This document shows, in pieces, positions 1,354 to 49,151 of a stretch of DNA of 64,000 nucleotides. The stretch is from Bacteroidota bacterium (lineage in GTDB: Bacteria; Bacteroidota; Bacteroidia; NS11-12g; UBA955). The notes beneath the pieces are model-generated. The model searched no databases and was not told the origin of the DNA. It saw only the letters and a list, made by a program, of their open reading frames with translations. The stretch is taken from NCBI GenBank assembly GCA_016787485.1, contig JAEUUL010000005.1, positions 5,588 through 69,587 of the forward strand, given 5' to 3'. A program made the translations under genes and the position numbers. The first letter of the stretch is position 1. Every line of letters starts with the position of its first letter.

Positions 1354-1660
1354 TTGCCTCGGGCAAACGCCAGTAGGTTTTGCCCTCTGTAAACTCCTGG
1401 GTTGCCTGCAACGTGGGTTTCGGCATTTTCTCGTACATCAGAGAGATTTCTATCTGCTCCCGGTTTTCCTGAATTTCTTCCAGATTGTCAGTGTCATTTA
1501 CAAACGGTTCAAGTCTGTTCTTCAGTTCCTCTTTTTGCTTTTCAGCAATCTGATTCGCCCTTTTGGAAATGATTACCACAGACATGTATACATTCTCGGT
1601 TTCAGGATCCAGTTTGCGCAGATCCAGGGTATCTGCTGTGCGTGAAGCGTTGGTGCTCAT
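1322..1660 (-). CDS. rpoZ: DNA-directed RNA polymerase subunit omega (Bacteroidota type)
   Basis: 112-aa ORF with NVYMSVVIISKRANQIA, which resembles the omega core helix. It sits in the conserved position between bamD and coaBC. Confidence 0.6.
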   Translation of the reverse strand: MSTNASRTADTLDLRKLDPETENVYMSVVIISKRANQIAEKQKEELKNRLEPFVNDTDNLEEIQENREQIEISLMYEKMPKPTLQATQEFTEGKTYWRLPEASVANALPEKP

Positions 1661-2493
1661 ATGTTTTCGTTGAGTTTGTTCTGTTCGTTGTTTATCTTTT
1701 CCTTCAGGGCAATTACATCCTTGTAATGCTTGCCCGTGGTTCCGTTGGTGTACAAATAGTCCTTAACCAGTTCTGCAGCCTCACCCAACCGGGCCCCCTT
1801 TTTCTTCTCTATGCTGTTGATGGCATACAGCAACTGTGCTTTCACAGCCAGGTATTCCAGTTCCTCCTTTTGTTCAAGATCCGGAAAAGATTTGATTGTG
1901 TTTTTTGCTGAAACCACTGTGGCCCTGTAATCGCCCATGCGGAAATACTGTATCACAATGTTGTATTCCTTCTGCTGCAATTTCCTTCTCAGTGCATCAA
2001 TATGGTCGTTGCATTTTCCTGCATAGGCCGTTTCGGGATAATAATTGATAAACGTTTGCAATGCCCCGATAATCTTGTAGGTCTGGCTTTGATCCAGTTC
2101 CGGGTCTCCCACACTCAGAAAATCACAATATACGGCCATGTATGCGCACTCTACCAGTTTGCGGCTGTTGCTGAAGTTCTCGGTAAAGTCTTTGAAATAC
2201 ATGGAAGCATATTCATAATCGCCGGTTCCGAAATGGCTGTAAGCCGTGTAGTAATAAACTGTTTCCAGACTGTCGCTGTTGCGGTATATATCCCTCAACT
2301 GTTCAAACAGAGGCAGTGCGCGCGCGAAATCTTTTTTCTGGTAAAGTTCTACCGCTTTTTCAAATTTCAAATGGGCATTTTTGGATTTGAAAACCTTGTT
2401 GTAATCCCCGCAGGAAGCAAGAGCTACAACCGATAAAATCAAAACTAAGCGGCCAACCATTTGAACCCGCGAAAATAGTACAAAAATGGGCAT
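1657..2493 (-). CDS. bamD: outer membrane protein assembly factor BamD (TPR lipoprotein)
   Basis: 278-aa ORF with a lipobox (VVALASCG) followed by TPR-like repeats (KFEKAVELYQKKDFARALPLFEQL). An alternative start at M12 (2460) is possible. Confidence 0.8.
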   Translation of the reverse strand: MPIFVLFSRVQMVGRLVLILSVVALASCGDYNKVFKSKNAHLKFEKAVELYQKKDFARALPLFEQLRDIYRNSDSLETVYYYTAYSHFGTGDYEYASMYFKDFTENFSNSRKLVECAYMAVYCDFLSVGDPELDQSQTYKIIGALQTFINYYPETAYAGKCNDHIDALRRKLQQKEYNIVIQYFRMGDYRATVVSAKNTIKSFPDLEQKEELEYLAVKAQLLYAINSIEKKKGARLGEAAELVKDYLYTNGTTGKHYKDVIALKEKINNEQNKLNENI

Positions 2494-2543
2494 TTTGCAA
2501 GTGAAAGTACAGCAAAGACGAACAGACCCGGGGCTTTGTTACA

Positions 2544-3893
2544 TCATCTGGTGAGCAAACTATCGGCGAGTATGCTTTTTTTCATCTCCAGCATTTCATT
2601 TCCGGTGGCTATGGAAGGTTGCCGGTTTGCTGCCATAAAGGTATATACGGGAAGCGTGGCCACCAGTTTTCCCTTGTAGATATAGTTTTGAAGAAAAAAC
2701 GCCTGTCTCACATCTGTACGGTGAGTTTGGTCAAACAGAAAATTTCCCAGTCCGTAATAAACAGGTTTCCCGTTTTCTACCGCTATTTGCTGAATCTGAT
2801 GTGCTTGGGAACCATACACCAAATCTGCGCCCCAGGCTGTGAGGTCTTTGCAGATGGCTGCCTGAGTGCTGCTGGGGGCGTAAGAATCCACTTCGCCAAA
2901 CTGCACTGAACATATCACCAAACCATTGCCAGCCTTCTTTCGGGCCTCTGCCAGCATGCGTTTTGCCTTTTCTGCATCATACCGGCAGGCACCCGGGCTG
3001 CTGCCTGCAGCACACTCTCCCAGCGGACACAGTTCATTGAACCCGACAAAAGCAACATGGGTGCTGTCCTTGAGGGTAATCAGCAGTGGGGCAGACGCCT
3101 CTGCTTCATTGCGGCCTCCGCCAAAAGGACGGATTCCGTGTTTCAGATACCACTCATAGGTTTGATTGAATGCGGCATTGCCATAATCCCGGTTGTGGTT
3201 TCCGGTAAGTTCTACTATATCACAGCCCAGATCCAGCAATGCCTGGAAATGGGCCTCTTTGCTGCAAAAACGGGTTCCACCTTTCGGGTACTGGCAGTCA
3301 GGGGTAAATGACACCTCATTGCTCATATGCAGCCAGTCCGATTTCGTAAACCACGGTTTCAGGTTCTTTGTGAGAAAGTCCACCCCATAGGCATCGGCAG
3401 CAAAACCGGTATTGCGGGTGATGGCTGTAACCCCGGTAATGCTGAGCAAAGTCACCTTTCCGCTGAATTCGAAGCGTTTCTCACCTTTTTCCATATAGGG
3501 CCAGCTTTCTGGTTTCTCAAAGAAAGAGTGCCCGTTTACCACCAGCGGTTTCAGCAATCCGTTCAGGCTATCCAGTGGGGCCAGCAGAAGTCCTTCAGGA
3601 AAATTACGCCTGAATTCGTTCAGGCTCACCGTTTTTATCCAGTGAAAATCCATGCCCATGGCCCGGGCTATCAGACTGGGGTCAGTTCCCTGCAGTTTAT
3701 ACAGTGCATAATCTTTTCCGGGTTTTACCTCTATGGAGTCACGCAGGTTGCCAATTCCGGTCAGCAGCAGCCATGGTAAATCTTCCCCGCGGCTTTCGGC
3801 GTTTAATTTTTTTTTGTCGTTCGCAGTAGTGCGTCCGGTGCAGCATTGCGCGCACAGCAAGCCCAGCAACAGCAGGTTTCTGAAACCAAACAT
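2544..3893 (-). CDS. CapA-family metallophosphatase-like protein (poly-gamma-glutamate capsule synthesis family)
   Basis: 449-aa ORF with an N-terminal signal or lipoprotein-like sequence. It carries ELTGNHNRDYG and GGG/HQIQ motifs typical of the CapA/PGA_cap family. Confidence 0.65.
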   Translation of the reverse strand: MFGFRNLLLLGLLCAQCCTGRTTANDKKKLNAESRGEDLPWLLLTGIGNLRDSIEVKPGKDYALYKLQGTDPSLIARAMGMDFHWIKTVSLNEFRRNFPEGLLLAPLDSLNGLLKPLVVNGHSFFEKPESWPYMEKGEKRFEFSGKVTLLSITGVTAITRNTGFAADAYGVDFLTKNLKPWFTKSDWLHMSNEVSFTPDCQYPKGGTRFCSKEAHFQALLDLGCDIVELTGNHNRDYGNAAFNQTYEWYLKHGIRPFGGGRNEAEASAPLLITLKDSTHVAFVGFNELCPLGECAAGSSPGACRYDAEKAKRMLAEARKKAGNGLVICSVQFGEVDSYAPSSTQAAICKDLTAWGADLVYGSQAHQIQQIAVENGKPVYYGLGNFLFDQTHRTDVRQAFFLQNYIYKGKLVATLPVYTFMAANRQPSIATGNEMLEMKKSILADSLLTR

Positions 3894-39968: not shown

Positions 39969-42900
39969 TTAAATACCGGCTTCCACAAAATACATCTCCA
40001 TTTCACCTTTGTGTTTGGCCATGATTTTGCCGCGTGGCGTGCATTTGAATTTGTCTTTAACCAGCAGATACGTGGTTTCGCTGATATTTACCCTGCCCGC
40101 TTCACCGCTGCTTTCCATGCGGCTGGCGGTATTCACCGTGTCGCCCCATATGTCATATGCGTATTTTTTTATACCCACGATGCCCGCAATCACCGGACCC
40201 GAGTGGATTCCAATGCGGATGAGCAAGGGATCTTTACCCAGCTTCACCCTTTCTTTTGAGTGTTCTTCTACAAATTGCTGTATGGCAAGCCCGGCACGCA
40301 CCACGTCTTCCGCATGGCTTTCTGAGGCTGTGGGCAAGCCACCCACACACATGTAACTGTCTCCTATGGTTTTTATTTTTTCTATTTTATATTGGGTGAC
40401 AATCGTATCAAATGCTTTGAAAAATGTATTCAGTTCATCCACCAATTCATTTGGGGTCATTTTCTCGGAAATCTGCGTGAAATCTTTGAAGTCGGTGAAC
40501 AGCACGGTCACCTCATCAAATTGTTTGGCATCCGCACTGCCTTTCGCCTTCAGCTCTTCTGCCACTTCTTCCGGAAGGATATTCAGCAATAATTCATCGC
40601 TGCGTTTTCTCTGTGTTTCCGCTTCGTTTTTCTGCTCCACCACTTCGCGGGTTCTCTCTTCCACCGTCCGTTCCAGCTTTTCTTTTTCTGCCCGCAGATT
40701 CCGTTCTCTCCACCGGATAAAGAAAAACAGGAATGCAAGCGGTACCACTACATACAGCACATACGCCCACCAGCTGCGGTACCAGGGCGGCATTACCCTG
40801 AATGCATAAGACACCGGCGCTGTCCAGTTGCCATCTGGTCCAAGGGCTTTCACTTTAAATGTATACCTGCCTTCGGGAATATTGCCAAATTCCGCATGAC
40901 TTGCCATGGTTACCGGATTCCAGTCTTTGTCATATCCCTCCAGCATGTATTGGTACTTCATCTGCATGGGTGCGGTGGTTTCAACCGCTGCAAAATCAAA
41001 CGATACTTTATTCAGATGATAGGGCAATGTAAAATGTCCGGGCACGGGGTAAAACGGCCTCAGCCCTGTTACTTCAATGCCCTTCCATCGGTTGAGCAGG
41101 GAGTCTTTTTCTGCCGGACTGAGGATTTTACCGTACGCCAGCATTTCCTGGAGTCGTGCAGTTGAACTGTCCTTTGCGGTTTTCCGTTTTGCGTTAGTGA
41201 GCAGGTTGTACCAGCAAATGGGTTCATCCATGATTCTGATATGCTGTATGACCACTTCAGGCCTGGCCGGCTGCCTGCCGGTTGCAGCATAATCCAGCCG
41301 CACCAGCCCGGTATTTTCAGCACCCGTTCCTGTCCACAGCATTCCTTTCCGGGTCACACACATGGCCTTGTGGCCCCGGTTCACCAGCTTAACCGGATAT
41401 CCGCTGCTGCGGTTGTACATTTCCAAACCGGTCAGTTTGCCTGCATCGGGTGTGGGCTGAAACAGCGCAATTCCGGATTCCGTACCCACTGCAATTTTGC
41501 CATCGGGCAGCTGAACCAGCTGCAACACATACGCACTGGGCAATCCATCCGTTATGGAAAAATTCCGGAACCAGCGCTTCACCGGGTTTTTCTGTGTCTT
41601 TTCCCGCAAGGTCAGTTCCATCATTTTCTGTTGTTCTTCCGGCCGCAGGCAACTGATACCCTTTTCGGTGCCGAACCACAGGTTGCCGGCCTTGTCTTCC
41701 AGTATGCTCTGCACTTTGTTGTGCGCCAGTCCCTGCGCCGTGGTGAATGTGGCAAAGGTTTTACCGTCATACCGGGTGACACCGTCGCCCCAGGTGCCAA
41801 ACCACAGATTGCCTGACCTGTCCTCCTGCATGCACTGCACATAGTCGCTTCCCAGACCCTGGATTGTACTGTACCGGGTCATGGTTTTCCCGTCGAACCG
41901 GGTGACCCCGCCACCCCAGGTTCCAAACCACAGATTGCCTGCTTTGTCCTGAAGTATGCTTACGATCACATCGTTGCCCAGTCCCTGGGCCAGGGTATAG
42001 GTGGTGAGTTGTTTGCCATCAAAACGGCATACGCCCCCGTCCCAGGTGCCCAGCCACAAACCACCCGCTTTGTCTTCTGCCAGTGCGTAAATATTGTTCT
42101 TTGGCAGTCCCTGTGCTGTGGTGTATTGTGTAAACGATTTGCCGTCAAAGCAGCTTAACCCTCCGTCTTCCGTGCCCAGCCACAGCTTGCCGTTTTTGTC
42201 TTCCAGCAGGCTTTGCACCCCATCCAGGGCCAGTGCCTGTGGCTGGGTGAAGCGGGTAAAGGCGGGTCCTTCATACCGGTCAACACCGCCGCCCCAGGTG
42301 CCAATCCACAGTTTTCCTGCTTTATCTTCTGTGAAACTGCGGATGTAGTTGTTGGTCAGTCCCTGCGCTGTGGAGTAGGAAACAAATGCACTCCCGTTCA
42401 AACAACTGATACCACCGCCCCAGGTTCCGAACCAGAGCTTGCCTTCCTGGTCTTTGTGCAGACAGCGGATCTGGTTGCTCGCCAGTCCGTGTGCCGTTGT
42501 GAAATGGGTGAAGGTCTTTCCGTTATAGCGGCTTGCCCCTCCGCCATCGGTACCAAACCAGATATTCCCTGCGTTGTCCTCTGCCATGCAGGAAACTGCA
42601 TTGGCAACCAATCCGTCTGACTCTGTAAAATTTGTGATTTTTTCGGGTTTTCCGGCCACGGGAGGTTCGTAGCGGTTTACGCCCCCACTCATGGTACCGA
42701 ACCACAGGTTGCCGGCCTTGTCCTCATAGATGCTCACCACCGCATCGTCTCCCATCAATTCCCGGAAACGCAGTTGTGTAAAGGATTTGCCGTCATACCT
42801 GCTGATGCCTGCTCCCCAGGTGCCAAACCACAGATTGCCGGCCCGGTCTTCCAGCAGGCTGAAAACCTCGTTGTTCGACAGTCCGTGCGATGTATTCAGG

Positions 42901-43532
42901 GTGCTAAACCCCTTTCCATCGTATTGGCTCACCCCGCCGCCATAAGTGGCAATCCACAGGTTGCCCTTACTGTCCTGCAAGATTGCGGAAACATGGTCAG
43001 AGGCCAGGCCATGCGCAGTGGTATAGGTGGTAAAGGCTTTGCCGTCATACCGGGTTATGCCTTTGTTCCAGGTGCCAAACCAAAGGTTTCCCGTTTTATC
43101 TGTGATTGAGCAGGTGATTTCATCCTGCGGCAGACCTTCACCCGTTGTAAAGTGGCTGAAATGGGAAATACCCCCGTTCCCGGCAATCCGCGGTTTCCCG
43201 GTGGAATCCTTCAGGATTTCGCCTTTCTCATTTTGCACCGCCGGCAGGGGAAATAGCAGGGGAGATGGATGTATGTTTAGGCTTCTGTCTGGATTTGGGG
43301 ATAGGGAGGAGAAGAGCCCAGCCCTTTCCGGGATGTTCACTGTTACAGGTGCAGGCAGGGTATCCAGTGCCCGCACGCGGGGTTTCAGGCTGTCTGCCAA
43401 GGCTGACAGCACCGTGATTTTCGGAGTCGAAAGGGTGTCTGGTGCGGTGTTCTCCCTCAGGCCAGATTCCGCCCCTCTGCCGCAGGACAGCAGAAAAAGC
43501 AGGGGAAACCATATCGCAGGGAATTTGCGCAT
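39969..43532 (-). CDS. periplasmic beta-propeller sensor (two-component regulator propeller repeats + Y_Y_Y) fused to a class III adenylate/guanylate cyclase
   Basis: 1187-aa ORF. It has many GNLWFGTWGGGV..YDGK repeats, one TM segment (WWAYVLYVVVPLAFLFFFI), a coiled coil and the cyclase core VTVLFTDFKDFT...IKTIGDSYMCVGG...IWGDTVNTASRMES. Confidence 0.85.
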   Translation of the reverse strand: MRKFPAIWFPLLFLLSCGRGAESGLRENTAPDTLSTPKITVLSALADSLKPRVRALDTLPAPVTVNIPERAGLFSSLSPNPDRSLNIHPSPLLFPLPAVQNEKGEILKDSTGKPRIAGNGGISHFSHFTTGEGLPQDEITCSITDKTGNLWFGTWNKGITRYDGKAFTTYTTAHGLASDHVSAILQDSKGNLWIATYGGGVSQYDGKGFSTLNTSHGLSNNEVFSLLEDRAGNLWFGTWGAGISRYDGKSFTQLRFRELMGDDAVVSIYEDKAGNLWFGTMSGGVNRYEPPVAGKPEKITNFTESDGLVANAVSCMAEDNAGNIWFGTDGGGASRYNGKTFTHFTTAHGLASNQIRCLHKDQEGKLWFGTWGGGISCLNGSAFVSYSTAQGLTNNYIRSFTEDKAGKLWIGTWGGGVDRYEGPAFTRFTQPQALALDGVQSLLEDKNGKLWLGTEDGGLSCFDGKSFTQYTTAQGLPKNNIYALAEDKAGGLWLGTWDGGVCRFDGKQLTTYTLAQGLGNDVIVSILQDKAGNLWFGTWGGGVTRFDGKTMTRYSTIQGLGSDYVQCMQEDRSGNLWFGTWGDGVTRYDGKTFATFTTAQGLAHNKVQSILEDKAGNLWFGTEKGISCLRPEEQQKMMELTLREKTQKNPVKRWFRNFSITDGLPSAYVLQLVQLPDGKIAVGTESGIALFQPTPDAGKLTGLEMYNRSSGYPVKLVNRGHKAMCVTRKGMLWTGTGAENTGLVRLDYAATGRQPARPEVVIQHIRIMDEPICWYNLLTNAKRKTAKDSSTARLQEMLAYGKILSPAEKDSLLNRWKGIEVTGLRPFYPVPGHFTLPYHLNKVSFDFAAVETTAPMQMKYQYMLEGYDKDWNPVTMASHAEFGNIPEGRYTFKVKALGPDGNWTAPVSYAFRVMPPWYRSWWAYVLYVVVPLAFLFFFIRWRERNLRAEKEKLERTVEERTREVVEQKNEAETQRKRSDELLLNILPEEVAEELKAKGSADAKQFDEVTVLFTDFKDFTQISEKMTPNELVDELNTFFKAFDTIVTQYKIEKIKTIGDSYMCVGGLPTASESHAEDVVRAGLAIQQFVEEHSKERVKLGKDPLLIRIGIHSGPVIAGIVGIKKYAYDIWGDTVNTASRMESSGEAGRVNISETTYLLVKDKFKCTPRGKIMAKHKGEMEMYFVEAGI

Positions 43533-43724
43533 TGCAACAAGCCCCGGCTCATTTCAGAACCGGGCCTGTGCGAATATACAGCATGGGTAGTGTGCTATGG
43601 ATTTATTGGCAAGCAGGGTGGGGAAATGCATCAAACAGAAAGAAAAATACCCATTAAGACAAACTCCGCAGGAGTAGCCACTCCCGATAACTATCGGGAG
43701 GTGTTGGGGGTATTTTAAATGGTT

Positions 43725-43859
43725 TGGTAACGGTTTGCAGCTTGGCGAAGTGGCGGAAATTGAAGCACAAATATTCAGTTTTGTACAAATATTCAATCGA
43801 AGAACTGAACTTGAATTTAGCAATGAACCCGCCATTTTGCCAAACTGCTGTTATGTGCC
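43725..43859. repeat. attC-like imperfect palindrome no. 1
   Basis: The left arm is TGGTAACGGTTTGCAGCTTGGCGAAGTGGCGG. The right arm is CCCGCCATTTTGCCAAACTGCTGTTATGTGCC. The outer cores are TAAC...GTTA. It lies directly 3' of the DUF2834 gene. Confidence 0.55.
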
Positions 43860-43869
43860 GTATTTTTCA

Positions 43870-44214
43870 TTACTGTCTTCTTAAATGAAGTTCTCTTATA
43901 AACAAGAATAATGGAAAACCGAATGCATAAGCAACGCATACAGTTAAGAAAAGATATAGCCAAATTCTCTTCATTTTTAGGCGAAGTCCCTCAACCAGTA
44001 TAAAGAACGTGCCAGCAATAGTACCTGTCCAAAAGTCAAAACTCAAACTTTTTGCATAATAATTGTCTGTCCAAGTACTCGTAATAAACTCTATGCTGTC
44101 GAAATCTCCTTTGTGTTCAATGATGCCAAGCACTGCAAAATAAAATGTAAGTCCACCGCCAAGTATTGTTAGTAATAGGTAGAAGTAATGTTTGTTGTTT
44201 AAAATTGTCGTCAT
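43870..44214 (-). CDS. DUF2834-like small membrane protein
   Basis: The ORF trimmed to MTTILNNKHYFY... is 114 aa with 3-4 TM segments. Its ATG overlaps the glycosyltransferase stop (ATGA). Confidence 0.55.
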   Translation of the reverse strand: MTTILNNKHYFYLLLTILGGGLTFYFAVLGIIEHKGDFDSIEFITSTWTDNYYAKSLSFDFWTGTIAGTFFILVEGLRLKMKRIWLYLFLTVCVAYAFGFPLFLFIRELHLRRQ

Positions 44215-45488
44215 ATTGAATTTTGTTTTAGATAATTCTCGATGATAATAAGACATTCGTTTACGCCATTTTCGAGGTACATTTTTTCTCCAATGGATTT
44301 TGCATTTCGCTTAAATTCAATCGAATCAACTTTAGTTATTCCACTAAGCAGTTTTTCAAAAGTCAATTTTTTGTATGGAATATGTACACCTGTTTTATTT
44401 TTTTCTATTAATTTGCCGTTAAATGGTTGGTCTGCAACAATAGAAACAATAACCATTGGGATTCCAGCTTTTAATGAAGAACCAATAGTTCCAATACCAC
44501 CGTGAATAATTACTATTTTACATCTTGGGAATAACCATTCGTGATTAATGTTTTCGATAACAAATAGATTTTTATGTTTCGTGTCAATGAATGGCTTAGT
44601 CCAGCCGTTACAAAAAACTATTCGATGATTAGTTTGGGTCAACAATACATCTATAATTGTTTTTAGTAAGTTGGTGTCTGGAATAGGAATACTTCCAAAA
44701 CCAATATAAATAGGTTTTTCTCCATCTTCAATCCATGCTTTTAATGCTTCAGGGATTTGTTCGTTAATATTTCTATTTCGTTCAGTCGTTGGGATTTCAA
44801 GAAAACCAGTTACAAAAGAATTAGAAGACCAGTCTTTAGGCTGTTTGAGCAATTGATTACTCATTGGATGAATGACAAGCCTATTCTTTCTTAATAACTC
44901 TGTCATTAATTCTGAGGTTTTCCAATTTGGCAAATTAAGTAGTTTGGCTGTTAGATTGACATCTTTTTGAATAAACAACTTTACCGCTATATAAGTGAAA
45001 ATAGAATAAGATATTTTATTTATGAACGGTATATTTTGAAACCCAAATCCCATTGCAGGAAATTCTTTTGTAATAGAGTAGGGCATACTAAAATTAAGAA
45101 TACCATATTTTATATTTTTCTTTAATGTTATTGGTAAAATGTTGGGAAAAGCTAATCCGCTTGCAATTATAAAATCGAAGCTATCAGAAGCCTTGTCAAT
45201 TTCAAAAATTATTTTTTCGTTATATTTTTCTGAATTTTTGCCAATCAGTCGAGCAAATTTTATCATATTGCCTTTACGAAGTACCTCTAAAACGTCTTCT
45301 GTATAGGCTTCTTTTTCAATGTCCATGCTCAATGGGCAAAATTCTATGTCATAGTCAGAAACTTGTTTTTGGAAGTTTTTAAAGGTTACAATAGTAACTT
45401 GATGTCCATTGTTTTTTAGCCCTATTGCCAATGCAATAAATGGTTGTATGTCTCCTCTTGAACCTTTCGTTACTAATCCAATTCTCAT
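44211..45488 (-). CDS. GT1-family UDP-glycosyltransferase (MGT/sterol-glucosyltransferase-like)
   Basis: 425-aa ORF with the N-terminus MRIGLVTKGSRGDIQPFIALAIGL and the C-terminal UGT signature IIHGGIGTIGSSLKAGIPMVIVSIVADQPFNG. Confidence 0.8.
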   Translation of the reverse strand: MRIGLVTKGSRGDIQPFIALAIGLKNNGHQVTIVTFKNFQKQVSDYDIEFCPLSMDIEKEAYTEDVLEVLRKGNMIKFARLIGKNSEKYNEKIIFEIDKASDSFDFIIASGLAFPNILPITLKKNIKYGILNFSMPYSITKEFPAMGFGFQNIPFINKISYSIFTYIAVKLFIQKDVNLTAKLLNLPNWKTSELMTELLRKNRLVIHPMSNQLLKQPKDWSSNSFVTGFLEIPTTERNRNINEQIPEALKAWIEDGEKPIYIGFGSIPIPDTNLLKTIIDVLLTQTNHRIVFCNGWTKPFIDTKHKNLFVIENINHEWLFPRCKIVIIHGGIGTIGSSLKAGIPMVIVSIVADQPFNGKLIEKNKTGVHIPYKKLTFEKLLSGITKVDSIEFKRNAKSIGEKMYLENGVNECLIIIENYLKQNSI

Positions 45489-45527
45489 TTTTTATTTGTC
45501 AATGCTTTTTGAGTGGTTCGGTAATAT

Positions 45528-45664
45528 GGCACATAACGTTTTGCAGCTACCCGAAGGGCGGGACTTTTACCACAAAACTTGATTTGAAAAACTAATGTTT
45601 CATTAACCACAAAACTGTCTTTGGAACACGAAACCCCGCCTTTTGGGTAGGTGCTGTTATGGGC
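45528..45664. repeat. attC-like imperfect palindrome no. 2
   Basis: The left arm is GGCACATAACGTTTTGCAGCTACCCGAAGGGCGGG. The right arm is CCCCGCCTTTTGGGTAGGTGCTGTTATGGGC. It lies between the 155-aa ORF stop and the glycosyltransferase start. Confidence 0.55.
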
Positions 45665-45671
45665 TGCCTTT

Positions 45672-46139
45672 CTATTCATTCTTAATATTAAAGTCTCCTG
45701 TTATTGGAAACTGTTTTGTAATTCTGTCGAGTTGATTTACTAAGTCTTTTATTTCTGTCTGGTCGAACCCCATTGTAAAAGTAAGTTCGCTTGCATTAAC
45801 TCCTGGATGGTCACACGCTTTTACATCAACTTCAAAATGTCCGATTCCGTCACCTGTAATTTTTAGTTCAAGATAACCTTCTAAATCATTGAAGTTTGCT
45901 GTGCCTTTCAAATTGTCATAGAGCCGAGAAAGTTCCTGTTTGAATTTCTCAAAGTCTACAGTCATAAAGTCACCCGAATATTGTCCTGAAAACTTTCCGC
46001 CTTTAACTGTCACGTTTGTCTTTACCCAATTCCTGTCCCAGTCGAGGTCTGAGTCATATTTAATTAACTCCAAAGGCTCAAGTCGAACGATGTCACCAGC
46101 ATCAAATATTTCAAAATATATTTCTTGTCTTTCTTTCAT
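45672..46139 (-). CDS. hypothetical protein, possibly an immunity-protein-like fold (WapI-like)
   Basis: 155-aa acidic ORF. The DWDRNWVKTNVTVKGGKFSG...DFEKFKQELSRLY pattern reminds me of WapI-type immunity proteins. This rests on memory only. Confidence 0.35.
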   Translation of the reverse strand: MKERQEIYFEIFDAGDIVRLEPLELIKYDSDLDWDRNWVKTNVTVKGGKFSGQYSGDFMTVDFEKFKQELSRLYDNLKGTANFNDLEGYLELKITGDGIGHFEVDVKACDHPGVNASELTFTMGFDQTEIKDLVNQLDRITKQFPITGDFNIKNE

Positions 46140-46159
46140 TGTTGTGTCGTCCTAAGGTT

Positions 46160-46297
46160 GCCCATAACGTTTTTGCGCTTGGCGTTCGTGCGGGATTTCG
46201 GAGCACCAAACTGTCAACCCAGCACTAAAGTTGATTTGAAAAACTGAACTTGAATTTAACCATTTCACCCCGCATGACGCCAAACGCATGTTACCTG
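46160..46297. repeat. attC-like imperfect palindrome no. 3
   Basis: The left arm is GCCCATAACGTTTTTGCGCTTGGCGTTCGTGCGGG. The right arm is CCCCGCATGACGCCAAACGCATGTTACCTGC. It shares central segments with no. 1 (AACTGAACTTGAATTTA) and no. 2 (TTGATTTGAAAAACT). Confidence 0.55.
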
Positions 46298-46315
46298 CTG
46301 TGTTTCGTTCTGTCG

Positions 46316-47077
46316 TCATAAGTTGTAGCGAATTACTTGTGCCGCACCTTTTTGTTTTAAATGAGCAACCGATTTGTTAATATATAGATTTCTAATTTCG
46401 TCTGGTGCAACATTACCGTCAAAGCCGTAACCTGTGACATCTACTTGGATTTTGATTTTCTTTTCCTTGTCAATGGTCTTGTTTTTAGGTCTTTGTTTTG
46501 GATACCACTTTTGAACTTCAAAAACTTCAACGATTAGTCCCCGAAATTCGCTCAATACATATTTAATTTGAGGAAGTCGCCATTCGCTTATCAACCAAGT
46601 TTCTTTTGTCGCTTGATAGATTGGGTCTGTTCCGTTACCACGTTTATATGTTCTGTTTATGTTAATCAATACGCAGTCTGAACCCATTTCGCTTAGTGGT
46701 TGTGCATTGTAAAGTCTTACGATTTCTTCAGAAGTCATAAGTCCTTTTTCGATTGAGTTATGTCCACCGACAATATTTGAAAGTAAAAGTCCGCAATATG
46801 TCAAGGTATCAATTAATGAGGCTTCAATTTGAAATGCTTCACTTTCTGAAAGTCCGTGTCTGACTATGATATGTTTTACTGTCTGACCACTTTGAACAAT
46901 CTCTCTTATTTTGTCGTATTTGGCATTTGAAGTATCTGTGTCTGTTAATGCACAAGCTAAATGATTAAATACTCTGTTGTCAATACCCTTACCAACATAG
47001 AAAGGTTTGTTGTCAGTCGGGTCAAGCAACATATAAACGTAATATTTCAGTGCTTGTCGTGATTTTTCGTCAAACAT
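46316..47077 (-). CDS. GIY-YIG nuclease-domain protein with an uncharacterised C-terminal domain
   Basis: 253-aa ORF. The N-terminus YYVYMLLDPTDNKPFYVGKGIDNRVFNH matches the GIY...YIG...R...H pattern. I do not recognise the C-terminal ~120 aa. Confidence 0.6.
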   Translation of the reverse strand: MFDEKSRQALKYYVYMLLDPTDNKPFYVGKGIDNRVFNHLACALTDTDTSNAKYDKIREIVQSGQTVKHIIVRHGLSESEAFQIEASLIDTLTYCGLLLSNIVGGHNSIEKGLMTSEEIVRLYNAQPLSEMGSDCVLININRTYKRGNGTDPIYQATKETWLISEWRLPQIKYVLSEFRGLIVEVFEVQKWYPKQRPKNKTIDKEKKIKIQVDVTGYGFDGNVAPDEIRNLYINKSVAHLKQKGAAQVIRYNL

Positions 47078-47081
47078 TGGG

Positions 47082-47276
47082 CTAACTTATTTTCTCAACT
47101 TTAAAATTACCTGCACTTTTATAGGATTGTGCTTGTTTGTTAAATCCCAATCTTGCAATTTCTTTTTCAATGTCTTGTGCATTTGGTGTCGGTGTTGTTG
47201 CAGAAGCAACTTGGAACGTGTAACCCTTCGGCATATCTCCGAATTGTCTTGGTGCTGTTAGTCTGTAAAGTGCCAT
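47082..47276 (-). CDS. small hypothetical protein (DUF6140-like?)
   Basis: The ORF trimmed to MALYRLTAPRQFGDMPKGYTFQVASATTPTPNAQDIEKEIARLGFNKQAQSYKSAGNFKVEKIS is 64 aa. It ends 4 nt upstream of the GIY-YIG gene start. Confidence 0.35.
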   Translation of the reverse strand: MALYRLTAPRQFGDMPKGYTFQVASATTPTPNAQDIEKEIARLGFNKQAQSYKSAGNFKVEKIS

Positions 47277-47403
47277 ACTTTTTTGTTTTTTAATTGTTCG
47301 CTTACTCTGGTCGGTTTTCAGCTTACCCGTTTTCTGCAAATTTCGTTTGTCAGTCCGTCAAACTGTGTCGTTGTGGACGGTCGTCTTAACATAGCAGGTA
47401 ACA

Positions 47404-47637
47404 TCATATATACGCTGTGTGCGCCATAGCCTCATCTTCTGTAATTCTATCGTGGCTAGGGTTAGCAGAGTATAACAGAAGCGGGGATTGGCGAAGGTTG
47501 TTAAAATACTTGTCAAACGAAAGGGTCTGTGGCTTTGCGAAGTTTGTCATGTTTATTATCAAATTGTACCTGTTTTCAGGAGAGTAATTGTATAGTGTAA
47601 ACGCCTCTTTCATTTTAACGGTCTTGATATTGTTCAA
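47404..47637 (-). CDS. hypothetical small protein
   Basis: 77-aa AT-rich ORF co-oriented with the island genes. I have no family assignment. Confidence 0.25.
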   Translation of the reverse strand: MNNIKTVKMKEAFTLYNYSPENRYNLIINMTNFAKPQTLSFDKYFNNLRQSPLLLYSANPSHDRITEDEAMAHTAYI

Positions 47638-47745
47638 ATATCACTTTTTCATAAATTGAAAATCCTTATTTCTGTATATATTTTACAAAAAGGTTGTTTG
47701 AGTTTTTAAATGCCTGTTTTGACTTTATAACGTCATCCCATCTTT

Positions 47746-49032
47746 TTACCCCCCGCAAATCCCCTTCAATGCACTCACCAATGCATCCAGATCCTGCAGG
47801 GATGTGCTCAGGTGAGGGGTGATGCGCACACCGTTTACCACACGATGCTCAATGGCAACGGTAAAAATCTGGAATTCATTCATCAGTTTTTCCGCCAGGT
47901 CTGATGGGGCGTAACCATCCACACGCACATTTGCTATGGCACAATTCCGCGCATTATCCGTGTGCGGATTCAGCAAACTGAGTCCGGGGAATTTTTCTAC
48001 CCGTGTGGTCCAGTATTGCATGAGATAACGAAGCCGGTTTTGTTTCAGGGTGCCGCCAATCTGATGGTGAAAGCGAATGGCTTCACCCAGTGCAATCAGG
48101 CTGTGTATGGGTTTGGTACCCTGGTGTTCAAAATGGCGGATGTTGGTTTCGGGATGGTCAAGGTCCGCCATCAGGGGCCAGAATTTGGGAATATGCGCCT
48201 GTTTCATTTGCAGAAAACCCAGGCCCAGTGGCGCGCACATCCATTTGTGCAGACTGCCGGCCACAATATCTGCTTTCAGGTCGGGCAGTTTAAATTCCAG
48301 TTGGGCCACACTGTGGGCTGCATCCACCACCACCAGCACATTGCGGGTGCGGCATGCATCGGCAATGGCAGACACGGGAATCACCTGTCCGGTCAGGTTT
48401 ATCACATGGGTGAGGTGTACCATACGGGTTTTTTTCCCCAGGTGCCGGGTGTAGGCCTCTATCACTTCAGCATCTGATTTGGGGTGCAGCGGTACCTGCG
48501 CTGTCTTGATCTTTATCCCATACCGTGCCGATGCCTGCTGAAAAGCCTGCACCATGCTTCCGTAGTCCTGATTGCCGATGATGACTTCATCGCCCTTTTT
48601 CCAGCGGTATCCGCCAATCACGATATTCAGACTTTCGGTGGTGTTGCGGGTCAGAGCCAGTTCTTCCGGACCCACACCCAGAAAACCCGAAAGGGCATGG
48701 CGTGCATTTTCCACGGCTGTATAATGTTCGCGGCGCATAAAATAGCTGTTCCGCTTGTTGATGTCCTGCTCCAGCTCCTGGTGTTTTTGCAGGGTGCTGA
48801 CGGGCTGGTGGCTGAAATATCCGTTTTCCAGGTTGATGTAGCCTTCGGGCCGCGGAAAATAGTTGCGCACGAGTTCCCAGTAGGTTTCATCCTTTACAGG
48901 GTCGGGCCCATGGGGGTAAAGGCTCAGATCGGACAATGCGGTAGCAGGCATGGATGGGGTTATGCTGCCGCCAAGGGCAGTTCCGGATAAGGCCATGGCA
49001 CTGGTTTGCAGGAATGATTTGCGTGAAAACAC
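47746..49032 (-). CDS. aminotransferase class V-fold PLP-dependent enzyme with a Tat-like signal
   Basis: 428-aa ORF with a GTG start. It has an SRKSFLQTSAMALSG leader and the PLP lysine context GSLHKWMCAPLGLGFL. It is similar to isopenicillin-N-epimerase or cysteine-desulfurase-like proteins. Confidence 0.7.
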   Translation of the reverse strand: MFSRKSFLQTSAMALSGTALGGSITPSMPATALSDLSLYPHGPDPVKDETYWELVRNYFPRPEGYINLENGYFSHQPVSTLQKHQELEQDINKRNSYFMRREHYTAVENARHALSGFLGVGPEELALTRNTTESLNIVIGGYRWKKGDEVIIGNQDYGSMVQAFQQASARYGIKIKTAQVPLHPKSDAEVIEAYTRHLGKKTRMVHLTHVINLTGQVIPVSAIADACRTRNVLVVVDAAHSVAQLEFKLPDLKADIVAGSLHKWMCAPLGLGFLQMKQAHIPKFWPLMADLDHPETNIRHFEHQGTKPIHSLIALGEAIRFHHQIGGTLKQNRLRYLMQYWTTRVEKFPGLSLLNPHTDNARNCAIANVRVDGYAPSDLAEKLMNEFQIFTVAIEHRVVNGVRITPHLSTSLQDLDALVSALKGICGG

Positions 49033-49075: not shown

Positions 49076-49151
49076 GGAGGAATGGTGGAATGAAAGGAAT
49101 GGAAGAATGAAAAAATGAAAGAATGAAAGAATGAAGGAATGAAGGAATGGG
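49076..49151. repeat. degenerate ~8-bp tandem repeat (GAATGRAR)n
   Basis: The sequence is GGAGGAATGGTGGAATGAAAGGAATGGAAGAATGAAAAAATGAAAGAATGAAAGAATGAAGGAATGAAGGAATGGG. It lies upstream of the aminotransferase gene. Confidence 0.8.

Follow-up and report, generated by a model that had tools for sequence, protein, structure and literature searches.

A recombinase-less array of three probable gene cassettes in a Bacteroidota genome and its relation to platforms with XerA-like recombinases

Known cassette systems and the locus under study

The attC sites of integrons are, in their canonical form, distinguished by a 7-bp R box and by extrahelical bases on the bottom-strand R''/L'' arm, and they are themselves the targets of IS1111-attC insertion sequences and group IIC-attC introns. 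Cury et al. reportedly described sedentary chromosomal integrons and CALINs in 2016. A CALIN is a cluster of attC sites without an integrase, and complete integrons have been reported in Chlorobi and Ignavibacteriae (IntegronFinder 2.0, PMC9024848). Surveys of 22,301 complete chromosomes found essentially no integrons in Bacteroidetes.

We report the analysis of an AT-rich island within a 64-kb stretch of Bacteroidota DNA (the window, by which the whole stretch is meant). A preliminary description had read the island as an integron-type cassette array without an integrase (CALIN-like), built on a divergent, poorly catalogued class of attC-like sites. Both proposals are borne out by the cassette junctions, arrays of up to 8 same-orientation sites in other genomes, stem covariation, the lack of target-site duplications, array starts close to recombinase genes and differences in cassette content. 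Very probably the island consists of three mobile gene cassettes in an array without a recombinase, equivalent to a CALIN, and belongs to an integron-like system found in the Bacteroidota/Ignavibacteriota/Chlorobi group; no description of such a system, with sites of about 126 bp and an XerA-like recombinase, was found in the searchable literature. We establish the structure and polarity of the sites, the junction signature, the organisation of the arrays, their linkage to the recombinase, and gain and loss of cassettes precisely at G|TTA.

GC content is 0.30-0.42 across positions 43600-47999 and 0.53-0.56 in both flanks, in keeping with the island of about 4 kb first described. The minus strand does carry all of its credible ORFs, which by Pfam are functionally unrelated: DUF2834, a GT1/GT28-type glycosyltransferase, a 155-aa protein, a GIY-YIG nuclease-domain protein and small ORFs. 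The 155-aa protein is a WapI-like immunity protein (PF24716, E 1.4e-31) and the GIY-YIG protein is LEM-3-like (Pfam PF22945, E 6e-15). For the flanking aminotransferase, even the closest relatives reach just ~60% identity. The reported absence of a tyrosine recombinase from the 64 kb stands, since tblastn with IntI1, XerD and 12 array-linked recombinases gave a best E of 0.03.

Sites, cassettes and array start in the window

The three imperfect palindromes (TAAC…GTTA, about 126 bp core to core) share one orientation, and every one starts 8-23 nt past a stop codon, 3' of minus-strand ORFs (Table 1). A covariance model (CM) built from them and run on the 64 kb with filters off matched the three array copies only, and a sequence-independent detector (TAAC/CAAC, a 14-bp stem, GTTA/GTTG) recovered exactly these three, with zero in shuffles. 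The three related palindromes of the preliminary description are thus recovered by both means, together with their layout of a TAAC core, a longer spacer (5' side on the + strand), arms of ~16-20 bp, a shorter spacer and GTTA; the further copies that it proposed to look for are present in other genomes and nowhere else in the 64 kb. Compensatory changes occur in 9/25 stem pairs among the three window copies alone. With DNA parameters the + (bottom) strand folds more stably in 3/3 window copies; with RNA parameters the MFE of the whole element is equal on both strands. At least two same-orientation sites 3' of ORFs with no integrase nearby, which is the functional definition of a CALIN, are present.

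Table 1. Features of the island, with cassette boundaries (positions in the window)
Feature	Position	Strand	Details
Site 1 (type A)	core 43728..43853; extended match 43723-43858	-	CM 137 bits; + strand DNA fold -24 kcal/mol, z -3.2
Site 2 (type B)	core 45534..45659; extended match 45529-45664	-	CM 113.2 bits; + strand DNA fold -27 kcal/mol, z -4.5
Site 3 (type C)	core 46165..46293; extended match 46160-46298	-	CM 148.6 bits; + strand DNA fold -23.7 kcal/mol, z -2.9; top strand R'' AAC end 46293-46290, R' G|TTA end 46168-46165
Cassette A, 1234 bp	46168..47401	-	boundaries from junction signature; 85-aa ORF 47082-47339; LEM-3-like GIY-YIG 46316-47077; own site
Cassette B, 631 bp	45537..46167	-	WapI-like immunity protein 45672-46139; own site
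Cassette C, 1806 bp	43731..45536	-	GT1/GT28-type glycosyltransferase 44211-45488, overlapping DUF2834 membrane protein 43870-44256 (Pfam); own site
Array start, junction core	47399..47402	-	top strand G|TTA; + strand TAAC; inverted repeat I6
AT-rich stretch, 343 bp	47403..47745	-	between aminotransferase stop and array start; includes 77-aa ORF

The cassette boundaries are set by a junction signature, in which the first ~14 nt of a cassette can pair with the outer arm of the site at its own downstream end (inverted repeats I6, I21 and I15). The match is 13/14 for cassette A, 12/14 for cassette B (start TTATGGGCAACCTT, I21) and 13/14 for cassette C (start TTATGTGCCATATT, I15), which would mark circularisable cassettes joined at G|TTA, and would place crossover at the G|TT of the distal core. 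The 85-aa ORF of cassette A has no Pfam family. The cassette C region is matched by an identical 1979-bp contig in SRR12144677, broken inside the repeat. Downstream of site 1 (43730 downwards) lies an orphan flank resembling a cassette start, TTACCAAACCATTTAAAATACC, which marks the array end.

By the same signature the array starts at 47399-47402, with the crossover point between 47402 and 47401, and not at 47732. The top strand at this fourth junction reads GATG|TTACCTGCTATGTT and can pair at 13/14 positions with the outer arm of the 46290 site (I6, 47388-47404 being 94% complementary to 46288-46304); the start of cassette A, GTTACCTGCTATGTTAAGACGAC, closely resembles the first-cassette start GTTACCTGCAAGTGTAGGACGAC of a related locus, L207. 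The earlier placement of the fourth junction at 47732-47726 is not upheld: the letters CGTTATA are there, yet the following sequence has no complementary partner (best 10/15), and TAACG occurs twice more by chance in the island. Consequently the preliminary sizes of 0.63 and 1.8 kb are right for cassettes B and C, and the ~1.5 kb given for the third is replaced by 1234 bp.

The ~25 nt upstream of the array start (top strand, 47403-47430, ...GCGTATATATGATG) resemble the attI-like junctions beside recombinase genes in related loci, with TATAAAYGAG|TTA aligning to TATATATGATG|TTA in the window, a short match with one extra base; a putative attI-like remnant at 47399-47430 precedes the cassettes. 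The 77-aa ORF of the 343-bp stretch has no Pfam family, and the stretch itself contains no CM or detector match, no recombinase remnant detectable by tblastn, and a weak palindrome that does not stand out from shuffles (z -0.6). The stretch may be what remains of a platform, or a cassette that has decayed.

The site family, its arrays and the recombinases linked to them

An exact-pattern scan of genomes gave at least 119 loci, and the site is found in at least 119 species genomes, nearly all of them, among the matches listed, Bacteroidota, Ignavibacteriota or Chlorobi-group; phages and plasmids carry it as well. Halpernia frigidisoli DSM 26000 and Pedobacter mendelii CCM 8685 are among the carriers. 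Among the matches listed, 57 loci hold 2-8 copies, at a median spacing of 1071 bp and in uniform orientation in all but 2, and half of the 8-kb loci hold a single copy. The sites (n=191) have a median length of 126 bp (107-146) and keep TAAC in 142/191 and GTTA in 130/191. Rfam contains no family that matches them. In an alignment of 150 sites, 87.7% of cells are paired against 70.4% in shuffles, compensatory changes fall in 21/25 stem pairs, and the covariation score is 0.392 against 0.127 when shuffled and at most 0.086 when slid. In the stems G·T outnumbers A·C (443 vs 103), an excess that comes largely from three inherited positions. The junction signature extends to the family: across 82 consecutive pairs, a cassette's complementarity with its own site is 6.2/10, compared with 3.4/10 for the adjoining one and 3.2/10 at random. 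The cargo sampled (ParE toxins, GNAT, glyoxalase, SUKH immunity, SnoaL, DUF1330 and hydrolase) is typical of chromosomal integrons, the sample being 10 ORFs chosen as recognisable-looking, 2/10 of them without a family.

Complete platforms carry an XerA-like tyrosine recombinase of ~360-400 aa, which stands at the upstream end of the array in 13/15 loci. Walking back from the first site, the first G|TTA is reached 90-175 bp from the recombinase gene, and there the first cassette begins, at the non-palindromic attI-like site TATAAAYGAG|TTA. Three homologues picked from the protein side, and not for the sites, all have same-strand arrays downstream (3/3), in which genes are followed by covariance-model matches. 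The recombinases linked to such arrays are IntI/XerA homologues, and the IntI-specific insertion is missing from all of them (14/14 array-adjoining recombinases and the three fetched independently). Aligned to IntI4 (2A3V), they leave out chain residues 184-244, and TIGR02249 is matched in two stretches at 174-213 bits against a cutoff of 265; judged by these alignments, they fall outside the definition of IntI, with no I2 region and scores below the TIGR02249 cutoff. XerA (4A8E, 5HXY) aligns end to end, and NF040815 (XerA / 'integron integrase') is scored at about its cutoff.

The recombinases accordingly resemble archaeal XerA and bacterial XerC-XerD in end-to-end alignment and in reaching or approaching the NF040815 cutoff, and differ from them in standing at the head of variable cassette arrays rather than at a dif-type 28-bp site and, in group 1, in having an N-terminal extension of ~75-100 aa. 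Xer-type recombinases are likewise implicated in moving the discrete gene modules of the Acinetobacter pdif system; those modules, however, are found on plasmids with 28-bp duplex sites in alternating orientation, whereas the sites described here are structured palindromes of ~130 bp in one-orientation arrays with a platform.

Cassettes are gained and lost exactly at G|TTA in related platforms, where the cassette-level comparison at GTT junctions that had been proposed could be made. Among metagenome platform variants, four cassettes present in L210 are missing from L211, the gap ending at G|TTA on both sides, and L212 and L213 have identical attI and distal G|TTA junctions but differ in the cargo that these enclose.

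Competing explanations and a proposed mechanism

The best-surviving rival, though an unlikely one, takes the island for an ordinary CALIN that belongs to a canonical integron, with standard attC sites and a bona fide IntI, I2 insertion included, elsewhere in the genome. Much of the organisation is shared with chromosomal integrons and CALINs: tandem, same-strand and mostly promoterless cassettes of ~0.4-3.5 kb, each ended by an imperfect palindrome whose outer cores are AAC/GTT; the junction signature, with probable crossover at G|TT and hybrid sites as its outcome; cargo that includes toxins, immunity proteins and small enzymes; an array head where a non-palindromic attI-like site has a recombinase of the IntI/Xer branch next to it; and, as for CALINs, recombinase-less arrays elsewhere in the chromosome. 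The R''(…AAC)–L''…L'–R'(GTT…) palindrome of canonical attC, of 57-141 bp and conserved in structure over sequence, is found here too, in one-orientation arrays, and the sites occur in the Chlorobi and Ignavibacteriae lineages with reported integrons (L013, L031 and L100); the sites might be detectable canonical attC variants. Against this stand the missing insertion in every array recombinase, whose gene is also often co-oriented with the cassettes, and the geometry of the site. Its outer stem is ~17-20 bp rather than 7 bp, with complementarity reaching ~14 nt beyond GTTA, and its spacers measure 1 nt and 5 nt; the R''/L'' arm shows no conservation of extrahelical bases, and the bases left unpaired (a 4-nt bulge and a lone base) are on the opposite arm. 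The ~70-nt centre, unlike that of chromosomal integron sites, is strongly conserved, in three sequence types shared across families, and the host phylum, in which the site is so frequent, is the one reported as nearly devoid of integrons.

It is more doubtful still that the sites belong to, or are moved by, two-gene IS91-family elements, so that the arrays would be by-products of rolling-circle, one-ended transposition. A second group of linked recombinases (group 2) is indeed part of such an element abutting the sites: an IS91-family transposase follows the group-2 recombinase in 83/83 loci with sequence available, and is annotated as such on plasmid pFM-G13, and in 75/80 metagenome copies the core motif GTTGAACTAAACCTTCGGT lies 75-100 bp upstream, adjoining a site of any type. 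IS91/ISCR elements are also known to co-mobilise DNA adjoining one end. However, the arrays with a stand-alone recombinase have no IS91 transposase and still differ by precise cassettes, the window has no IS91 gene, and rolling-circle read-through would not end at both G|TTA cores. The IS91-type unit is moreover flanked like a cassette and has its own short site, which suggests that it exploits sites rather than creating them. In abutting the core whatever the site type it is parasite-like, as are IS1111-attC insertion sequences and group IIC-attC introns, from which it differs in combining an HUH Y2 transposase with a tyrosine recombinase, in its cassette-like flanks and in its short site.

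That the palindromes are scattered without regard to genes, as miniature transposable elements, REP-like repeats or terminators, the cassettes being illusory, is barely credible and already contradicted, for although they are highly conserved repeats of many genomes, phages and plasmids, often single in a locus and placed 3' of ORFs as terminators would be, the MITE behaviour that was to count against an array is not seen: target-site duplications (≥7/8 flank identity) were found in 0/191 elements (mean flank identity 2.09/8 vs 2.23 at random), orientation is strictly common within arrays and to ORFs (the array strand carries the longest ORF in 116/124 cassettes, the opposite strand in 8), flanks are complementary to the next element and not the same one, samples differ by indels that take out entire gene-plus-site units at G|TTA, and the 64-kb window has the three array copies only.

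We therefore favour the recombinase-less cassette array. Each cassette consists of one or two promoterless ORFs and a structured site of ~126 bp, the latter comprising an outer core pair (...TAAC / GTTA...), a covarying stem of 16-20 bp and a centre of ~70 nt, its spacers asymmetric on the coding strand (1 nt after AAC, 5 nt before GTT). A tyrosine recombinase, for which the XerA-like enzyme is the candidate, would excise cassettes as circles and insert them, exchanging strands at G|TTA, and because of exchange at this point a cassette would have, at its 5' end, the distal half of the outer stem that belongs to its own site. The site may be recombined as a folded bottom strand, in the manner of attC, or in duplex form. 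In a complete platform the XerA-like recombinase gene lies 90-175 bp from the attI-like site where the first cassette begins; in the window the gene is absent and ahead of the cassettes there is only a putative attI-like remnant. Since the recombinases lack the IntI insertion, the system is better said to work like an integron than to have been shown to belong to the canonical integron family. An integron-like system of this kind is widespread in the Bacteroidota, a phylum thought to be nearly integron-free.

Cassettes of the AT-rich island

The AT-rich island between the adenylate-cyclase and aminotransferase genes is very probably an array of three cassettes without a recombinase. The preliminary description, which had proposed a cassette array with no integrase in view, was right in substance: three sites are present, their junctions carry a distinctive signature, and neither a tyrosine recombinase nor a remnant of one was found within the 64-kb window. 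The base composition agrees with that description as well, GC being 0.30-0.42 over 43600-47999 as against 0.53-0.56 on either side.

Three related imperfect palindromes lie directly 3' of the DUF2834, WapI and GIY-YIG genes. A covariance model built from the three (R1), run with filters off over the 64 kb, returns these three matches and no others. A sequence-independent detector (TAAC or CAAC, a 14-bp stem, and GTTA or GTTG) finds the same sites in the window and none in shuffles, and the central 28-nt module of the sites occurs three times against 0.00 expected. Compensatory changes are seen in 9 of 25 stem pairs even when the comparison is confined to the three window copies, and folding with DNA parameters favours the + (non-coding) strand over the coding strand in all three.

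Features of the window, with coordinates counted within it
Feature	Position	Strand	Remarks
Propeller/Y_Y_Y/adenylate-cyclase protein, 1187 aa	39969-43532	-	flanking gene
126-nt periodicity	42000-43100		Reg_prop ('two-component regulator propeller') units; ordinary coding repeat in the cyclase gene
R1 match	43723-43858		repeat-bearing centre 43760-43825
DUF2834	43870-44256	-	overlaps glycosyltransferase ORF
GT1/GT28-type glycosyltransferase	44211-45488	-	overlaps DUF2834 ORF
R1 match	45529-45664		repeat-bearing centre 45565-45635
WapI-like immunity protein, 155 aa	45672-46139	-	PF24716, E 1e-31
R1 match	46160-46298		repeat-bearing centre 46200-46265
LEM-3-like GIY-YIG protein	46316-47077	-	
85-aa ORF and 77-aa ORF	between the flanking genes	-	no family for either
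DUF805b-like stretch	47299-47331	-	weak match to RF02914
Fourth junction	47399-47402		GATG|TTACCTGCTATGTT
Class-V aminotransferase	47746-49032	-	flanking gene, RecJ precedes
8-nt tandem unit, about 9 copies	49077-49149		GAATGAAA/GAATGGAA-like; intergenic between RecJ stop and aminotransferase start

When the minus strand is taken as the coding (top) strand, the sites all have the form ...TAAC-A-stem...stem-(5 nt)-CG|TTA..., where the vertical bar marks the predicted point of strand exchange. The roughly 14 nt lying 3' of each G|TTA find their complement, at 13, 12 and 13 of 14 positions, in the outer arm of the site that comes next downstream, and in the window they are non-complementary to the outer arm of the site that precedes them. 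Pairing of each cassette start with the arm of the following site is characteristic of units that exist as circles bearing a single complete site; such circles would be joined into arrays by crossover in the conserved core. The same signature locates the fourth junction and sets the cassettes at 1234, 631 and 1806 bp, so that of the sizes originally proposed those of about 0.63 and 1.8 kb stand, while that of about 1.5 kb gives way to 1234 bp. The array start placed earlier at 47732 is discarded, the sequence adjoining it having no complementary partner. A candidate fourth palindrome (47392-47540) was also rejected as a site: shuffled sequences fold as well as it does, and neither detector picks it up.

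In the common site types the centre, of about 70 nt, holds two or three direct repeats of a GCAC(A/T)AAA-N-TT(C/G)A-like motif and is near-identical from one bacterial family to another, in contrast to classical attC with its variable loop; the centre may serve as a binding array for a host factor or for the recombinase. Elsewhere in the island, the DUF805b-like stretch (27.8 bits, where the gathering score is 35.6; E 7e-5) lies just 5' of the point at which the 85-aa ORF of cassette A, the 1234-bp unit, probably starts, and a 57-nt stretch resembling it (84% identity) is present in another array, at L046 (L-numbers denote related loci outside the window).

Exact-protein look-ups with the window genes gave a 1979-bp contig, identical to the window, as their sole match. 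Homologues of the flanking aminotransferase reach at most 60% identity and preserve the RecJ-aminotransferase synteny; their downstream neighbour is a different one, and an empty site is therefore not definable. No homologues of the window cassette proteins were found in the related loci fetched.

A site family in Bacteroidota and neighbouring phyla

A scan by exact matching of the degenerate central module, with one genome per species, gave at least 119 loci, nearly all in Bacteroidota, together with Ignavibacteriota and a Chlorobi-group MAG. Among the matches listed, the Bacteroidota fall in the Flavobacteriales, Sphingobacteriales, Cytophagales, Chitinophagales and Bacteroidales, and nhmmer counts 248 copies. 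Three sequence types, which are those of the three window copies, recur nearly unaltered across families; in every case TAAC...GTTA bounds them and the sequence beyond is unrelated. No target-site duplications were found around sites of the family, and Rfam gave no match for them. With the structural detector another 37 sites come to light whose sequences belong to other types, some of them short, at 56-75 bp.

The sites are arranged as arrays. At 57 loci there are 2-8 copies per 8 kb, with a median spacing of 1071 bp and an orientation that is uniform in all but two, and with the detectors merged the longest ORF between sites shares the strand of the array in 116 of 124 cases. Ten ORFs, chosen for looking recognisable and hence not a random sample, include ParE toxins, a GNAT protein, a glyoxalase, a SUKH immunity protein, SnoaL, DUF1330 and a hydrolase, and two without a family. 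Across 82 consecutive pairs of sites, complementarity of the cassette start to the cassette's own site averages 6.2/10 (mode 8-9), as against 3.4/10 for the adjoining site and 3.2/10 at random.

Conservation of the fold is apparent in 150 model-aligned sites, in which the share of paired cells is 87.7% versus 70.4% in shuffles, 21 of 25 stem pairs carry compensatory changes, and the covariation score is 0.392, compared with 0.127 for shuffled and at most 0.086 for slid controls. The spacers are asymmetric in a constant manner across the family, with 1 nt following AAC and 5 nt preceding GTT. As regards strand choice, the stems of the non-coding strand hold 443 G·T and 103 A·C, an excess for which three inherited positions largely account, and the folding energy of the whole element does not differ between strands.

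Differences of whole cassettes, which the preliminary description had proposed looking for, are seen on related platforms between samples sharing the same recombinase, with endpoints at the predicted crossover. L211 lacks positions 11203-14477 of L210, a stretch of four cassettes: they share one sequence as far as ...ATAAACGAG|TTA and diverge beyond it, where L211 continues with the L210 sequence found 3' of a site's ...CCAACCG|TTA. L212 and L213 are identical to ...TAAATGAG|TTAGC, then carry different restriction/defence genes, and rejoin 3' of ...AACCG|TTACCGCCAAGTGTAGAAAA. An apparent difference between the first cassettes of L209 and L207 was set aside, for their DNA is 100% identical and gene calling alone differs.

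Sites also occur in phages. Flavobacterium phage 6H (KC959568.1, positions 1500-3620; L205), a temperate phage of F. psychrophilum, has 5-6 sites, each right 3' of a small hypothetical ORF and of polarity opposite to that of chromosomal arrays; phages 2A, FPSV-D15, FPSV-D35 and FPSV-D17 were noted alongside it as site carriers. Cassettes may move from host to host on such phages, as well as on plasmids of Myroides and Flavobacterium. Among the loci of the exact-match scan are two short contigs, one binned in a 'Thermoplasmata archaeon' MAG (L112, JBBABA010000027.1) and one in an alphaproteobacterial 'Jhaorihella' MAG (L060, JBKEDD010000048.1), that bear arrays and recombinases of Bacteroidota/Ignavibacteriota kind, the L112 recombinase being 81% identical to an Ignavibacteria protein; these are likely mis-binned contigs rather than cases of cross-domain transfer.

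Two families of array-linked recombinase

By tblastn, tyrosine recombinases are found in 14-15 of the at least 119 loci, 13 of them at the upstream end of the array, and they form two families. Group 1 proteins, of about 350-400 aa, have an N-terminal extension and no IS91 partner; group 1 is probably the platform recombinase, a XerA-like enzyme cognate to the sites. Walking back from the first detected site by the 'own-cassette' rule, in which a cassette start pairs with the cassette's own site, arrives at the first G|TTA at a distance of 90-175 bp from the group-1 gene, and the sequence preceding it is non-palindromic. Starting instead from the protein, we fetched three group-1 homologues (from at least 8000 matches) on long contigs, irrespective of sites. 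All three loci show conserved core genes, then the recombinase, then unrelated small genes on the same strand, and R1 with filters off detects sites directly 3' of the small genes, all in array polarity. The attI-like consensus beside the group-1 gene is TATAAAYGAG|TTA and the window junction reads TATATATGATG|TTA, a short match that is suggestive of a platform remnant in the window.

The group-2 gene lies in divergent orientation, 55-70 bp from a site with the conserved outer arm ...CGAAGGTTTAGTTCAAC, a motif present in 75 of 80 loci of a metagenome scan with this family. We considered group 2 as the array integrase, on the basis of its place beside single sites at L004, L052, L074 and L032, and rejected it: the metagenome scan and the annotation of Myroides plasmid pFM-G13, on which the pairing with an IS91-family transposase was first seen, identify it as ORF1 of an IS91-family element. 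The transposase lies directly 3' of the group-2 gene in all 83 loci with enough sequence, and the unit is cassette-shaped with a short site of its own, G|TTGAACTAAACC...rec...tnp...CGGTTCCGTTCAAC-hairpin-CTGTTA; it is therefore treated as an insertion sequence exploiting the sites. This two-gene element, in which a tyrosine recombinase is joined to an HUH transposase and which abuts site cores at L004, L032, L052, L074, L206 and L121-L200, has the look of a parasite that attacks arrays site-specifically, or else of a self-mobile 'cassette'.

At L004, L032, L052 and L074 the sole ATG ahead of the conserved recombinase ORF is in a different frame from it; an A8-A9 run separates the two, and coding conservation reaches right up to the run. 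An ATG with an A7-A9 run occurs in 77 of 80 metagenome copies, the frame being established for the four loci. From sequence, the arrangement is suggestive of a phase-variable switch, of transcriptional slippage or of programmed -1 frameshifting.

Integron or analogue

The best model for both recombinase families is NF040815 ('XerA / integron integrase'), whose cutoff they roughly reach, and TIGR02249 (integron integrase) matches both in two pieces below cutoff. Against solved structures, both align end to end with archaeal XerA, and with IntI4 in two pieces that skip chain residues 184-244, the IntI-specific insertion (I2); IntI has this insertion and the array-linked recombinases do not. The canonical attC site has a 7-bp R box. 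Compared with its geometry, window-type sites have a far longer outer stem, spacers of 1 nt and 5 nt, and unpaired extra bases on the arm opposite to that of the attC extrahelical bases, and GCACAAA-type direct repeats are conserved in the centre of the common types. As the IntI insertion and the extrahelical-base geometry, two traits that define the canonical family, are both absent, we describe the system as one that works like an integron, short of canonical family membership.

IntegronFinder 2.0, applied to 22,301 complete chromosomes, reported for Bacteroidetes one complete Salinibacter integron and otherwise the In0 known earlier, and noted integrons in Chlorobi and Ignavibacteriae (PMC9024848); surveys hold Bacteroidetes to be near integron-free, and absence from large clades has been called 'intriguing' (PMC9024848). 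Reviews count Bacteroidota among the phyla in which some integrons occur, with detail lacking, and a 2024 preprint cites the phylum with respect to clades earlier found without them. Work on IntI evolution (PMC4792948, PMC7790495) credits acquisition of the I2 helix with having enabled single-strand attC recombination. In the full-text literature covered, which excludes subscription journals, no description of this site class or its platforms was found, and we give equal weight to the system being truly undescribed and to its having been described already.

The island would be one instance of an integron analogue that spans the phylum and that the standard criteria for integrons would pass over. 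In its widest form, which may just as well prove wrong as right, the proposal is of a widespread unrecognised analogue in Bacteroidota, Ignavibacteriota and the Chlorobi group, in which sedentary platforms and dispersed arrays swap cassettes through structured sites of about 130 bp, served by XerA-like recombinases that never gained I2 or have lost it, with sites on phages and plasmids and parasitised by a cassette-shaped IS91-family element. Cultured carriers exist (Halpernia frigidisoli DSM 26000, Pedobacter mendelii CCM 8685 and Flectobacillus roseus LMG 24501), which makes the system experimentally tractable. If the proposal is true, tools keyed to the IntI insertion overlook entire lineages, the arrays hold a large unexplored pool of mobile genes with toxin-immunity, restriction/defence and beta-lactamase-like cargo, and they would provide a natural test of whether the I2 domain is necessary for gene capture of the integron type.
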